A DNA stretch of 64,000 bases from Escherichia phage vB_EcoM_SQ17, in the sequence record MW882907; one strand, 5' to 3'. The notes below the pieces were generated by a model. It was not told where the DNA came from and searched no databases. It saw only the letters and a program-made list of their open reading frames with translations. Numbering within the stretch: position 1 is the stretch's first letter; the number at the start of each line of letters is the position of its first letter. Below, one piece after another: positions 57,380 through 64,000 of this stretch. Made by a program: the position numbers and the translations under genes.

Positions 57380-58038
57380 TGACCATACTTAATACTAAAG
57401 CGGGAGTAATATCCCGCGAAGCAGATTTTTTAGGATTTAGAAAAAATCCTACTCAAATTGATATTTTAAACAACCAAGGCGTAGGTTCTGTAACCATTTC
57501 TCAATTGGCAAAAGGATTCTACGATGATAACGTAGAATCTGCAATAAACGATGTTCATAATATTGCTAGAGCAGATGTAGGAACAGTTACAATTAACACC
57601 TCAGGTGTATCTCCTGAAGGAACTTCACAGGTAGATTATTGGTCCTTTAGTGGAAGTGTAGCCGACCCTAGTTTGCCCGATGGAAGCCCTGTTATTGTAA
57701 AAGTTTACGGGCTTCCTGTTAATGCTACTGTAGGTATGACAGCCGACGAATTTGTTGTACAATTACGTACTACTCTCCGGAATGCGATTTCCGACCAATT
57801 GGCTATTGCAGAGTATAAAGATGACCCTACTGTTGGGACTAAATTACAAATAACATATTTAGATAACCAAAGACACGTACTCCCCACGTATTCCGCTTAT
57901 GGTATCACGGTTTCTCAAGAAATAGTGTCCCAGGCTAAGTCCGGGTACGGCACTTGGAATTTACTAGGTGCGCAAACCCTTACTCTTGACAACCATAATT
58001 CACCTACAACCTTTTATTATTTTGTGAGAACCGCATGA
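57379..58038 (+). CDS. 11: baseplate wedge / short tail fiber attachment protein gp11
   Basis: ATG overlapping gene 10 stop: [20 protein letters not shown]...; about 219 aa. Confidence 0.85.
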
Positions 58039-59591
58039 GTAACAATACATATCAACACGTTTCGAACGAATCTGTATATGTTGAATTTGACCCTACCGGG
58101 TCAAATTTTGATAGTTCAATAACCAATGTCCAGGCAGCCTTAGCCTCAATTAGCGCATATGGTGTTAAAGGTGTTCCGGAAGCAAGCGAAGCAGAAAAAG
58201 GTGTAATTCAATTAGCGTCAGAACAAGAAGTTCTTGATGGATTTAATAGTACTAAAGCCGTTACACCAGCAACATTAAATGCAAGACTTCAGTATCCGAA
58301 CGCGTCAGAAACACAGTACGGCGTAACTAAATATGCAACACAAGAGGAGGCCATTGCTGGCACTTTAGACACTGTTTCTATTACTCCGCTTAAATTAAAC
58401 CAAACTATTGATAACACTTTCTCTACTCGGTATTCAACAGAAACAACTAACGGTGTTATTAAAATTGCAACTCAAACCGCGGCACTTGCTGGATCTGATG
58501 ACACCACAGCAATGACTCCGCTTAAAACGCAACAATTAGCAATAAAATTAATTTCTCAAATAGCTCCTAATAACGACCCGGCTTCAGAATCTATTACCGG
58601 TGTTGTGCGTTTAGCTACGGTGGCTCAAACACGTCAAGGAACTCTTCGCGAAGGATATGCAATTTCCCCGTATACCTTTATGAATTCTGTTGCAACACAA
58701 GAATATAAAGGTGTTATACGTCTAGGAACACAAGCGGAAATTAATAGCAATTTGGGAGATGTTGCTGTAACAGGTGAAACGCTAAATGGTAGAGGAGCTA
58801 CCGGTTCTATGCGTGGAGTCGTAAAATTAACGACGCAGGCTGGTATTGCCCCTGAAGGCGATAGCTCTGGAGCATTAGCATGGAACGCAGATGTAATTAA
58901 TACACGCGGTGGGCAAACTATTAATGGTTCTTTAAATTTAGATCACCTCACAGCAAATGGAATTTGGTCGCGTGGCGGAATGTGGAAAAACGGTGACCAG
59001 CCAGTTGCAACAGAGAGATATGCATCTGAACGTGTTCCTGTTGGAACAATTCAAATGTTCGCAGGTGATAGCGCTCCTCCAGGTTGGGTTTTATGTCATG
59101 GTGGGACCATTTCTGGAGACCAATTTCCGGACTATCGAAATGTGGTCGGAACAAGATTTGGCGGTGATTGGAATAATCCTGGTATTCCTGATATGCGAGG
59201 TCTTTTTGTTAGAGGAGCTGGCACAGGCAGTCATATTTTAAATCAACGCGGACAAGATGGTTATGGGAAGGATAGACTTGGTGTAGGATGTGACGGAATG
59301 CATGTTGGCGGTGTTCAGGCACAACAAATGTCATACCATAAACATGCTGGTGCCTGGGGGGAAAATGGAAATAGCAGAGGTTATGCACCGTTTGGAGCAT
59401 CTAATGGCAATGGATATTTAGGCAATGGTAAAAGCGCCGACTGGGACAACCATTTGTTCTTTACTAACGACGGATTTGAAATGGGTGGTGCTCGTGACTC
59501 GTTTGGCACGTTAAACCGTGAAGGATTAATTGGTTATGAAACTAGACCATGGAATATATCATTAAATTATATTATTAAAGTCCATTACTAA
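58035..59591 (+). CDS. 12: short tail fiber protein gp12
   Basis: 518-aa ORF with repetitive central region and C-terminal receptor-binding domain; ATGA overlap with gene 11. Confidence 0.9.
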
Positions 59592-59600
59592 GGGTAAAAA

Positions 59601-61043
59601 ATGATCGAATTAAAAAGTCTACCATATGTTGATGGCCCTCCTGATGAGGGTCAAAAACGTTTAAACTGGATTAAAAATTCAGAAGAAATAACTGGCGCTG
59701 ATACGTTATACGGTTCTGAAGGAGTAATGAACCGTCCAATAACAGAAGTTCAACGAAATGTAGAAACAATTAACGATAACGTTAAGACTATCGCAGAATC
59801 TTTAGATACCGCTAATGCTGATATTGTCACAATTAAAAGTATCTTGGATGTTTCTGGTGACGTAGATGCTTTAGCACAAATTGGACATAACACCGATGAT
59901 ATTGAAGTATTAAAACACACCGTAAATTCACACGGTGTTGATATTTTAAACACTGAAGAAAAACTAGATGATACTATTGCTAATATCGGAGTAGTTAATC
60001 CAGAAACAGATTCGGTGTATCGTACGGTGCGTAACGACCTTCTTTGGATTAAAACCGAATTAGGGCAATATACTGGACAAGATATTAATGGTGTCCCTAC
60101 CGAAGGTAATGAAAGCACCGGGATGAAACGACGTATTATTACTAACAGTTCAGTGTTGGTTGACCAAGGCGTTCGTTTAACCGAGTTAGAAAATAAATTT
60201 GCCGATTCTGATGTTGGGGCTCTGACAACCGAAGTTGAAAACCTCCGTCAAGAAATAGGTCCTAGACCATCGTTAACAGTACCGGTTTACACTCTTTTAT
60301 CTGGTATTGATTCATCCATTTCTATCCAAACCAGAGATATTGCGGCATTAAAAGATTTTGTTGGATATCCTAATTCAACCGCTATTAAAACTCAAGTCGA
60401 GGCCAATCGTCTTTCTATATCAACAATAAATTCAGACATTAACTCGCCTGGTGGTATTAAACCACGTTTGACAACGTTAGAAACTACTATAGGCTCTCCG
60501 GATTTACCGACTACTCTTCAGGGTAAGATCAAATTAAATACCGATTCTATTTCAGGTATTAACACAGTTTTAGGTGTTGATTCTTCTAGCGGTTTACGTT
60601 TTAACGTAGCATGGCTTAATCAGGTGGTTGGCGTCGATTCAAATGGTGGACAACCTGAACCGGCTGGTTCACTTTTATATAGGACTCGTATTCTTGAAAC
60701 TGATGTTACTGACCTAGGCAATAACATTCAAAACGTTCAAACCGAATTGGGAACTAATTCGTCCGGTATTAAAGGACAAGTGACTAGTTTAAATAAACTT
60801 ATAAGCGGAACCAACCCAAACGGTCAAACCGTAGAAGAACGTGGTATATTGCCAACAGTTAAAAACCATGATACGACAATTAATGGTTTAACTTCTATAA
60901 TTGCTACTCTTGAAACTGATTTGGCCGCTGCAGAAGCAGAAATTCAGGCCCTTAAAGAGGCTGGATATATCGAAGATGCTCCTTCAGACGGTAAATTCTA
61001 TGTTCGTAAAGACGGTGCATGGGTTGAACTTCCTACAGCTTAA
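59601..61043 (+). CDS. wac: fibritin (whisker) Wac
   Basis: 480-aa coiled-coil ORF ending with foldon-like GYIEDAPSDGKFYVRKDGAWVELPTA. Confidence 0.9.
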   Translation: MIELKSLPYVDGPPDEGQKRLNWIKNSEEITGADTLYGSEGVMNRPITEVQRNVETINDNVKTIAESLDTANADIVTIKSILDVSGDVDALAQIGHNTDDIEVLKHTVNSHGVDILNTEEKLDDTIANIGVVNPETDSVYRTVRNDLLWIKTELGQYTGQDINGVPTEGNESTGMKRRIITNSSVLVDQGVRLTELENKFADSDVGALTTEVENLRQEIGPRPSLTVPVYTLLSGIDSSISIQTRDIAALKDFVGYPNSTAIKTQVEANRLSISTINSDINSPGGIKPRLTTLETTIGSPDLPTTLQGKIKLNTDSISGINTVLGVDSSSGLRFNVAWLNQVVGVDSNGGQPEPAGSLLYRTRILETDVTDLGNNIQNVQTELGTNSSGIKGQVTSLNKLISGTNPNGQTVEERGILPTVKNHDTTINGLTSIIATLETDLAAAEAEIQALKEAGYIEDAPSDGKFYVRKDGAWVELPTA

Positions 61044-61049
61044 TGAAAA

Positions 61050-61063
61050 GGGCCTTCGGGCCC
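61050..61063 (+). other. GC hairpin (GGGCC-TTCG-GGCCC) after wac
   Basis: Same stem/tetraloop as hairpin at 24874..24887; no U-tract, likely RNA stability element or weak terminator. Confidence 0.35.
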
Positions 61064-61075
61064 TAAAGGATTTAT

Positions 61076-62002
61076 ATGTCAGGTTATAATGCACAAAACC
61101 CTAAAGAATTAAAGGACGTAATATTACGTCGTTTAGGCGCTCCTATTGTAAATGTTGAATTAACTACAGATCAAATTTATGATTGTATTTCACGAGCGTT
61201 AGAACTTTATGGCGAATACCATTTTGACGGGTTGAATAAAGGTTTCCATGTATTTTTTGTTGATGATGAAGAAAAATACCGTCACGGCGTATTTGATATG
61301 CGCGGTTCTAACGTATTTGCCGTAACAAGAATTATAAGAACAAACGTTGGCTCTATTACTTCAATGGACGGTAATGCAACTTATCCTTGGTTCACTGATT
61401 TCCTTTTAGGAATGGCAGGTGTTTCTGGTGGCATGGGTAGTAATTGTGGTAAATTCTACGGACCGAACGCTTTTGGCGCTGACCTTGGGTATTATTCTCA
61501 ATTAGTATCTTATATGGGTATGCTTCAAGATATGATTGCTCCTCTTCCAGATTTTTGGTTTAACTCTGCAAACGAGCAATTAAAAGTAATGGGTAACTTT
61601 AGACAGAAAGACGTCATTATCGTTGAATCGTATGTTCGCTCTTATATCGAGACCCATAAGATGGTAGGAAATACAGTAGGGTACGGCCAGGTCGGTCCTC
61701 GTGATTCATGGTCTATTTCTGAGCGGTATGACAACCCGGACCATAATTTGGTCGGACGTCGAGTTGGTGAAGATCCTGCAACTAAACAAGGCGCATATAA
61801 CAACCGCTGGGTTAAAGATTATGCAACTGCATTAGCTAAAGAGCTTAATGGGCAAATTCTTGCTAAACATCAAGGTATGATGTTACCAGGTGGCGTCACT
61901 GTTGATGGCGTTCGATTAATTGAGGAAGCTCGTTTAGAGAAAGAAGCTTTACGAGAAGAGTTATATTTACTGGACCCTCCTGCTGGTATTTTGGTAGGTT
62001 AA
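61076..62002 (+). CDS. 13: neck protein gp13
   Basis: 308-aa ORF; size and position match T4 gp13. Confidence 0.85.
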
Positions 62003-62003
62003 T

Positions 62004-62639
62004 ATGGCAACATACTACAGATTGTATATTACAACATTTGAAACATCCACCGGTATAAAGATTTATGGTGGTAAACACAAATCAGTTTACGAAGACCCTT
62101 CAAAAGACCCTTATACCGGGTCTGGTACCTTTATACGAAGGGCCAAAAGAAAATACGGTCCGTCTTGTATAAAAGAAATTATATGGTCTAAGCCATTTGA
62201 ATCTAAAGCTCTAATGGATGAAGCTGAAGAGTTACTGGTAGATGAATTATCCATTTTAGAAAATTGCGCAAATCTTGTTAAAGGTGGTGCAGGCGGAAGG
62301 TCGTATATTAACCCAGAAGATAATCCATCTATAGGACAAAAACGTTCAGCCCAATCTAAAAAGAAAATGTCTGACGCCGCAAAATCAAGAAAATGGACTG
62401 AAGAAGGGTTAAGAAAACGTAAAGAATCTACAGCAAGAATGTGGAAAGATTTCAAACATAGACATCCTGATTTTTCTGGTTCAAAAAATCCAGCAGCTCG
62501 AAAAGTTAGTGTAAATGGTAAAATATTTAACACCTGCAAAGAATGTGGTGAAGAATTTAATATCACATCAAGCGCGGTTATAGGCCGATGCAAAAACAAC
62601 AAACCTAAATGGGCAGGATGGAATTATGTCGACGTATAA
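62004..62639 (+). CDS. Seg-like GIY-YIG homing endonuclease (free-standing, between genes 13 and 14)
   Basis: 211-aa ORF; N-terminal [23 protein letters not shown] (degenerate GIY...YIG), basic NUMOD-like C-terminal region and CKECGEE...C zinc motif. Confidence 0.5.
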
Positions 62640-63390
62640 TTCAAATTTATTTGCAAAGTTAGAAAACCGAGAAGGCTATTCTAAAACTAATGAAACCGAG
62701 ATTTTAAACAAATACGTGAACTTCAACAAATACGAAAATAGTCAAACCCTAGCTGATGTGTTAGTAGCAGAAAGCATACAGATGCGCGGTATTGAATGTT
62801 TTTATGTTCCACGTGAATATGTTGCTGTGGACCTTATCTTTGGTGAGGACCTTAAAAATAAATTTACTAAAGCATGGAAATTTGCTGCATATCTGAACTC
62901 ATTTGAAGGTTATGAAGGAGCGAAATCGTTCTTCAGCAACTTCGGAATGCAAGTTCAAGACGAAGTTACATTATCTATTAACCCAGGTCTTTTCAAACAC
63001 CAGGTCAACAATCAGGAGCCCAAGGAAGGTGATTTAATATACTTCCCAATGGACAACAGTTTGTTTGAGATTAACTGGGTTGAACCATATGACCCATTCT
63101 ATCAAGTAGGTAAAAATGCGATTCGTAAAATTACTGCAGGCAAGTTTATTTACTCTGGTGAAGAAATCAATCCGGTGCTTCAGAAAAATGAAGGTATCAA
63201 TATACCTGAATTTAGTGACTTGGAACTTAACCCTGTTAGAAATCTTGACGGTATCCATGACATTAATATCGATGAATATTCTGAAGTTGAGCAAATCAAT
63301 TCAGAGGCAAGTGAATACGTTGAGCCGTATGTAGTAGTTAACAACCGTGGTAGACAAAATTCACCCTTTGATGACGGATTTATGAATTAA
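62626..63390 (+). CDS. 14: neck protein gp14
   Basis: 254-aa ORF; size and position match T4 gp14. Confidence 0.85.
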
Positions 63391-63442
63391 TAAATAGATA
63401 AGATAAAGCAAACACCGGTCGAAAGGCCGGTTAGGAGAAATG

Positions 63443-64000
63443 ATGTTTGGTTATTTTTACAACTCGTCGTTCAGGCGATATATCACAATGATGGGCGATT
63501 TGTTTTCAAATATCCAAGTTAACCGTCAATTGTCTACAGGCAATAAATTAATTAGAGTTCCTATTACGTACGCATCTAAAGAGCACTTTATGATGAAACT
63601 TAATAAATGGACCTCTATAAACTCACAAGAAGATGTGGCTAAAGTCGAAACTATTCTACCACGTATAAATCTCCAAATGGTAGATTTCGTTTATAACCCA
63701 ACGTTTAAAACGAATATATTGAATAACTCTCTTTTGAGTAAATCGACTAAGGATATTGTAGACCAATACAACCCATCACCAATTAAAATGATTTTTGAAC
63801 TGAGCATCTTTACTCGTTATGAAGATGATATGTTCCAAATCGTTGAGCAAATTATTCCATATTTTCAGCCGCATTTTAATACGACTATGATTGAGCAATA
63901 TGGGCAGGATATTCCATTTGAAAGGGATATTAAAGTCGTATGGATGTCAGCAGCAATGGATGAACAAATAGACGGTGATAATTTATCCCGTCGACGTTTA
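63443..64000 (+). CDS. 15: tail sheath stabilizer/completion protein gp15, N-terminal portion (runs off window end)
   Basis: ATG at 63443 after AGGAGA SD: MFGYFYNSSFRRYITMMGDLFSNIQ...; in frame exactly to position 64000; not in track because truncated. Confidence 0.85.
   Translation, partial: MFGYFYNSSFRRYITMMGDLFSNIQVNRQLSTGNKLIRVPITYASKEHFMMKLNKWTSINSQEDVAKVETILPRINLQMVDFVYNPTFKTNILNNSLLSKSTKDIVDQYNPSPIKMIFELSIFTRYEDDMFQIVEQIIPYFQPHFNTTMIEQYGQDIPFERDIKVVWMSAAMDEQIDGDNLSRRRL

Follow-up and report, generated by a model that had tools for sequence, protein, structure and literature searches.

Introduction

The endonucleases SegF, SegG, SegE, SegB and MobE spread by intronless homing: their genes occur sporadically, lie between conserved genes, are flanked by diverged target DNA and carry embedded signals of the downstream gene (PMC2988022). 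For T4 SegC, a free-standing GIY-YIG endonuclease, Table 1 of the same review, by Edgell, Gibb and Belfort, records activity, and its gene is a promoterless cassette in a late structural-gene cluster; segF and segG have also been described as promoterless cassettes (PMC2988022). The td intron encodes a further relative, I-TevI, with structures of its catalytic (PDB 1ln0/1mk0) and DNA-binding (1i3j/1t2t) domains and a reference catalytic set of Y6 (GIY), Y17 (YIG), R27, E75 and N90.

In this work we analysed a window of 64,000 nucleotides from Escherichia phage vB_EcoM_SQ17 (record MW882907). In T4 the neck genes 13 and 14 are adjacent, as an earlier note on this DNA had stated, and are separated by one nucleotide; in the window a gene, here called seg, stands between them. 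In all likelihood it is a promoterless 622-bp cassette set between genes 13 and 14 of a Mosigvirus, an RB69-like relative of T4.

The locus shares with SegF, SegG, SegE, SegB and MobE the sporadic presence, intergenic location, flank divergence and embedded downstream signal. Unlike in those systems, the embedded signal is the gene-14 start codon and ribosome site, not a promoter, and seg begins on the resident gene's own start codon. Like segC, seg appears to be promoterless and belongs to a late structural-gene cluster; segC is inserted between genes 5.1 and 5.3, and a different target is therefore presumed for seg. In contrast to I-TevI, the seg protein is free-standing and not intron-encoded, has no Cys4 zinc finger and no helix carrying R27 and H31, and has a shorter linker.

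A gene between the neck genes

The presence of a 211-aa ORF between genes 13 and 14, claimed in the earlier note, is borne out at 62004..62639 on the plus strand, with 1 nt between the gene 13 stop and the seg ATG and an overlap of 14 nt between seg and gene 14. The features of the locus are as follows.

61076..62002, plus strand: gene 13, neck protein (head-tail adaptor), left flank; PHROG 211 at 2.2e-43
62004..62639, plus strand: seg ORF, ATG start, 211 aa; Seg-type free-standing homing endonuclease (PHROG 314, SegC homology, annotated copies)
62004..62015, plus strand: first four seg codons, ATGGCAACATAC, encoding MATY; same as the gene-14 start of seg-less phages in junction alignments
62004..62297, plus strand: N-terminal GIY-YIG-type catalytic domain, about residues 1-98; invariant RLY (6-8), Y21-G-G, E75 and N90
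62316..62372, plus strand: NUMOD3-like DNA-binding helix motif, residues 105-123; PF07460, E 0.0063, 16.9 bits against a cut-off of 20.4
62478..62615, plus strand: C-terminal helix-turn-helix, residues 159-204, of the type seen in the I-TevI DNA-binding domain; PF20987 at 1e-4, below the Pfam threshold; includes the CKECGEE stretch
62615..62628, plus strand: new gene-14 translation start within the seg 3' end; AGGA 7 nt upstream of the ATG
62626..63390, plus strand: gene 14, neck protein (head closure), right flank; Pfam PF11649 T4_neck-protein at 2e-127
62626..62673, plus strand: recoded gene-14 5' end; 16 substitutions in 48 nt relative to seg-less Mosigviruses

Judged by its PHROG 314 match, its intact and near-identical copies and relatives of 53-63% identity elsewhere, the seg ORF is not a chance frame. 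Very probably it is a free-standing homing endonuclease gene of the Seg type that is, or until recently was, active.

A GIY-YIG protein of the SegC/SegE type

The seg protein consists of a divergent SegC/SegE-type GIY-YIG catalytic domain and an I-TevI-like DNA-binding region, and contains no zinc finger. Residues 1-210 match PHROG 314 ('homing endonuclease') at 2.6e-37, and the alignment of the protein with T4 SegC is collinear and covers its full length at 33% identity. The N-terminal 100 aa taken alone are 40% identical to SegC (BLASTP, E 1e-12). Both proteins have the motif variant YxGxHK...D-x-Y-x-GSG...KYG...E...N...GGxGG and, after it, NUMOD3 followed by a C-terminal helix-turn-helix. 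They differ in the beta-hairpin between the Tyr motifs, two residues longer in the seg protein, and in that SegC passes the Pfam SegE_GIY-YIG model PF19835 (26.4 bits, threshold 25) whereas the seg protein falls below all Pfam GIY-YIG thresholds.

Indeed, neither PF01541 (GIY-YIG) nor PF19835 was matched by the whole protein at E<=1 or by its N-terminal 100 aa at E<=10, and an NCBIfam scan gave no GIY-YIG match, the 'group I intron endonuclease' model being hit weakly at 27 bits against a cut-off of 56. As the direct family models failed for GIY-YIG, the case was built on SegC homology, profiles and structure. A full-length relative exceeds the PF19835 threshold with 30.4 bits, and in a 44-sequence alignment assembled from two database searches PF01541 is matched by 19 of the 44 profile-found relatives and NUMOD3 by 25.

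A broad profile reached both I-TevI domains in the PDB, the catalytic one at 1.3e-9 (1ln0) and the DNA-binding one at 2.5e-14 (1i3j), the former match depending on the inclusion of canonical GIY-YIG proteins in the underlying alignment. A close-family profile reached the DNA-binding domain alone (1i3j, 2.7e-5), with no match to the catalytic domain, so the sequence link to the I-TevI catalytic domain is transitive; the profile link was cross-checked by the N-terminal BLASTP comparison with SegC. Single-sequence phmmer against the PDB returned a weak match to the I-TevI DNA-binding domain and spurious ones to interferon-gamma, and nothing more. The AlphaFold model of the protein is confident (pLDDT 89), and Foldseek placed 1i3j first among its matches with a probability of 0.99; no GIY-YIG domain was found by Foldseek against the PDB with this model. 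Structure matches further down were to a GIY-YIG restriction enzyme, the UvrC GIY-YIG domain, T4 EndoII, SLX1 and Eco29kI. The predicted structure has the GIY-YIG alpha/beta fold, with a Tyr-bearing beta-hairpin, a third strand and flanking helices.

The superfamily is very large: an exhaustive profile search collected 7100 cluster representatives at E<=1e-3, of which only three reached E<=1e-30. Most of the nearest N-terminal relatives of the seg protein are missed by the Pfam GIY-YIG models. One relative of the same divergent catalytic subfamily, likewise with no Pfam match, is a 256-aa 'putative GIY-YIG homing endonuclease' of Aeromonas phage 25 (locus 1168-1938), 49% identical over residues 4-98 (E 6e-27). 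Its C-terminus is unrelated and its gene is inserted beside nrdA; the comparison of the two sequences indicates domain shuffling within the GIY-YIG subfamily.

Catalytic residues and DNA-binding region

Residues Y21, E75 and N90 of the seg protein align with Y17, E75 and N90 of I-TevI, the last two bearing the same numbers in both proteins, and are kept across the family; N90 is the sole invariant column of the 44-sequence alignment. The position of the first tyrosine is less regular, since the invariant Y8 of RLY lies 13 residues from Y21, where the usual spacing is 10-11, and the profile alignment puts T10 in the canonical column. No residue aligns with R27 or H31 of I-TevI, because the helix that carries both is absent, as it is in T4 SegC. 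The earlier note had called the N-terminus, quoting residues 5-27, a degenerate GIY-YIG motif; with no Pfam GIY-YIG match, a non-canonical first-Tyr spacing and no aligned equivalent of I-TevI R27, this is a fair description.

Such features raise the question of whether seg is an inactive, decaying remnant of a homing endonuclease gene, kept for the gene-14 start codon and ribosome site embedded in it. RLY in place of GIY, YGG in place of YIG, the lack of an alignable arginine and the failure of the Pfam models all fit a remnant. However, RLY, Y21, E73-A-E75 and N90 are invariant among relatives at 53-63% identity in three genera, and T4 SegC has the same variant (YxGxHK...DxYxGSG...KYG) and is nevertheless listed as active. 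We regard a remnant as improbable.

The C-terminal part is a modular DNA-binding region made of a NUMOD3-like helix and a helix-turn-helix. The search for NUMOD domains proposed in the earlier note gave a match to NUMOD3 at an E-value of 6e-3, which stays under the Pfam threshold. The zinc motif that the note had seen in CKECGEE (residues 178-184) does not stand. The protein contains five cysteines only, at positions 55, 88, 178, 181 and 196; C178 is unconserved, being G or L in relatives, and is unique to this protein. Moreover, CKECGEE aligns with the helix-turn-helix of the I-TevI DNA-binding domain and not with its Cys4 finger. A zinc finger at this stretch was therefore rejected.

Junction architecture and takeover of the gene-14 start

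Gene 14 of seg-less phages begins with ATGGCAACTTAT..., and seg begins with ATGGCAACATAC (MATY). The seg start is identical to the seg-less gene-14 start, and seg therefore uses the resident ribosome site and start codon of gene 14. Gene 14 in turn restarts from an ATG located in the Asn-Tyr codons of the conserved C-terminal W-N-Y of seg, with AGGA 7 nt upstream, and this ...GGAAT TATG overlap is kept in the seg+ phages of the three genera that have this Seg lineage. A deletion of seg would thus remove the gene-14 start, so retention would be favoured whether the enzyme is active or not, a point on the side of a decaying remnant; the same argument has been made for embedded promoters, and T4 SegD is listed with activity not determined (PMC2988022).

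With 636 nt of ORF for 622 bp of insert, the ORF fills the whole insert. It stands alone between two genes, outside any intron or intein. An intron-encoded or zinc-finger enzyme of the I-TevI type might be suspected from the I-TevI-like C-terminus, the weak NCBIfam match (27 against 56 bits) and the CxxC of this copy. However, an Rfam scan of 60900-64000 at E<=1 matched no family, group I introns included, the ORF occupies the entire insert between two genes, and the residue at 178 is G or L in relatives, in a stretch that aligns to the helix-turn-helix. An intron-encoded origin was thus rejected, and we give this whole reading a probability close to nil.

No T4 late promoter (TATAAATA) occurs on the plus strand within about 7 kb, and sites with one mismatch occur at chance frequency. 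RNA hairpins that would mask the ribosome site of seg or gene 14 did not beat shuffled sequences (z-scores 0.3-0.8).

Upstream, between wac and gene 13, a GC-rich perfect palindromic hairpin, AGGGCCTTCGGGCCCT, is located at 61049-61064; in NRG-P0074 and SA79RD the corresponding position carries a terminator annotation.

Distribution among Mosigviruses

A megablast search with the 13-14 region found 12 phage records with the ORF, at a region identity of 98.0-98.6%; all 12 copies are intact and 99-100% identical. In about 141 other Mosigvirus records the match is broken into two pieces and the region is exactly 622 bp shorter, with genes 13 and 14 one nucleotide apart, so that seg is carried by 12 of about 153 Mosigvirus records at >=90% identity. 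The junction comparison across T4-like phages suggested in the earlier note thus gave a clean empty site in most phages and seg in a minority. The same note had held that lack of a GIY-YIG fold together with universal presence at this site would speak against its proposal; the fold is present in the model and seg is far from universal. The proposal of a Seg-like free-standing GIY-YIG homing endonuclease is supported by the full-length SegC alignment, the I-TevI-type C-terminus and the sporadic distribution; its nuclease activity and homing are presumed.

The seg+ phages could be thought of as a single clonal clade. This was not supported: their gp12/wac regions differ in background, and at a control locus, where identity is about 98% to seg+ and seg-less phages alike, the two kinds are mixed. 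The gp12/wac allele of the window is closest (96%) to those of PHB12, SF and RB69, none of which is among the 12 full-length seg+ matches, and the best 30 matches listed for this allele include no other seg+ record. Since the allele is not shared by other seg+ phages among these best 30 matches, this region of the genome is mosaic. The intact ORF in all 12 copies and the occurrence of the gene in different neighbouring backgrounds both speak against a decaying remnant.

In the region of gp12 (58035-59591) and wac (59601-61043), the window shows 14-58 mismatches per 100 nt (mostly 20-58) against NRG-P0074 and SA79RD over 58000-60900; near 60900 the figure falls sharply to 0-8 per 100 nt.

The element is an ordinary one and already known: records of sister phages annotate it as such, and copies in GenBank are labelled 'GIY-YIG endonuclease', 'homing endonuclease' or 'putative endonuclease'. 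A literature search for a described 13/14 Seg found no paper on the enzyme or its target. At NCBI the same amino-acid sequence also appears as 'hypothetical protein ABH225_001158 [Shigella flexneri]' on a contig of 90 kb, which is probably phage sequence deposited as part of a bacterial assembly.

A recoded patch at the start of gene 14

On the left of the insert, gene 13 is essentially unchanged with respect to seg-less Mosigviruses (0-8 mismatches per 100 nt), and gp13 is 100% identical in amino acids to that of NRG-P0074 and SA79RD. On the right, gp14 is 97-98% identical to its seg-less Mosigvirus counterparts, and the differences are concentrated: 16 of the 30 right-flank mismatches fall within the first 48 nt of gene 14 (binomial P 4e-16), followed by 0-1 differences per 50 nt. 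This patch (62626-62673) alters 12 codons, 8 synonymously and 4 non-synonymously, and is exclusive to the 12 seg+ records. The 13-aa peptide that it encodes is the gp14 N-terminus of Klebsiella Marfavirus pzk-kv8, which suggests that the patch arrived with the cassette from a different lineage.

The patch is probably an altered target or immunity patch as well as a donor-derived flank, and on balance we favour, with some reserve, a seg target within the recoded region. The patch could instead be a donor flank that was passively co-transferred, and not a recognition site. CNNNG motifs occur in both seg+ and seg-less alleles, and calling a cleavage site from them would be speculation.

Further into the gene, at 62676-62766, two gene-14 alleles exist among seg-less Mosigviruses, one equal to the window (NRG-P0074) and one T4-like with about 26 differences (SA79RD). 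The pattern resembles another recombination boundary, some 140 nt from the gene-14 start, and may reflect an old co-conversion tract or a past loss of seg.

The same junction in other genera

Relatives of seg with 55-60% identity occupy the same 13/14 junction in the Gaprivervirus phages RZ and SP18 and the Slopekvirus phages phT4A and Kiwi_ER50; the homologue of SP18, a Shigella phage, has been named 'segC' since the genome was deposited. As in the Mosigviruses, presence is partial, with seg in 16 of 149 matching Slopekvirus records and 9 of 37 for Gaprivervirus. In both genera the opening 2-4 codons of seg are those of the resident gene 14, namely MATY in Gaprivervirus and ATGCA(A), encoding MQ or MH, in Slopekvirus. 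Gene 14 is also recoded: in Slopekvirus there are 33 changes in the first 90 nt and about none thereafter, and in Gaprivervirus 22 in the first 90 gene-14 columns, with another 11 in the closing 30 nt of gene 13.

At this junction the Krischvirus Phi1 has another Seg, with 27% identity, and the site was therefore invaded more than once. In this phage too the gene-14 ATG overlaps the seg 3' end, as TTTATTATG. At 1435-1500 of the Phi1 locus, gene 13 is followed by a 66-nt spacer with an inverted repeat (GTTCTCGTTAG...CTGACGAGAAC) and a separate Shine-Dalgarno in it, and the start-codon takeover of the other genera is absent.

Relative to the window, Seg identity is 60% in Gaprivervirus and 55-56% in Slopekvirus, for gp13/gp14 identities of 64/61% and 49-52%, respectively. 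Long residence with frequent loss is possible, given that the divergence of Seg approximates that of gp13 and gp14. This similarity is also what vertical descent would give if the protein were domesticated, that is, a DNA-binding protein or nuclease with a non-homing role such as neck-gene regulation or exclusion of competitors; I-TevI, which doubles as a transcriptional autorepressor, lends a precedent (PMC2988022). However, in each genus most members lack seg and have nothing that looks like a substitute, the recoded patch and seg are strictly linked, the backgrounds are mosaic, and the 27%-identical Seg of Phi1 points to repeated invasion. Domestication appears to us very improbable.

Tentatively, and with rather less than even confidence, we consider the 13/14 junction a recurrent landing site for Seg genes in at least four Straboviridae genera, with one lineage travelling as a self-contained, immune-recoded cassette that crosses genera. 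Such a cassette would supply a replacement gene-14 start and a gene-14 5' end already recoded and immune to cleavage, which in this phage looks imported from a Marfavirus-like gene 14, and would cross genera through recombination within a few tens of nucleotides of the conserved junction.

In distant T4-like phages, too, Seg genes of this type recur beside genes for head completion and the neck. In the Acinetobacter phage phi1_092060 a Seg relative of 33-35% identity (locus 1501-2151) lies between the genes for head closure and the DNA end protector, which we take to be T4 genes 4 and 2.

Discussion

The proposed course of events is homing of seg into the empty 13/14 junction. The gene would be transcribed with the late 13-14 message; as there is no consensus late promoter in the vicinity, the timing of its expression is taken from the operon context. 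When both kinds of phage infect one cell, the enzyme would bind seg-less DNA and cut it in or close to the stretch formed by the 13/14 junction and the first 50-90 nt of gene 14. In the seg+ genome this site would be interrupted by the insert as well as recoded, and would thus escape cleavage. T4-type recombination would then mend the break with the seg+ genome as template, and in doing so would copy seg together with the adjacent patch. Overall this would amount to intronless homing with co-conversion, a view that draws on the established behaviour of T4 Seg enzymes (PMC2988022). SegF and SegG cut at distant sites; the cleavage site of the seg enzyme, in contrast, may adjoin the point of insertion.

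Pfam models miss the divergent SegC/SegE-type subfamily, and automated annotation therefore often yields 'hypothetical protein'; this is an annotation gap and not a new kind of element. The 48-nt patch provides a concrete guess for the target of the enzyme. Moreover, the 13/14 cassette is a tidy natural example of a gene entering an essential late operon without breaking it, and it also shows short pieces of structural genes being moved between phages.
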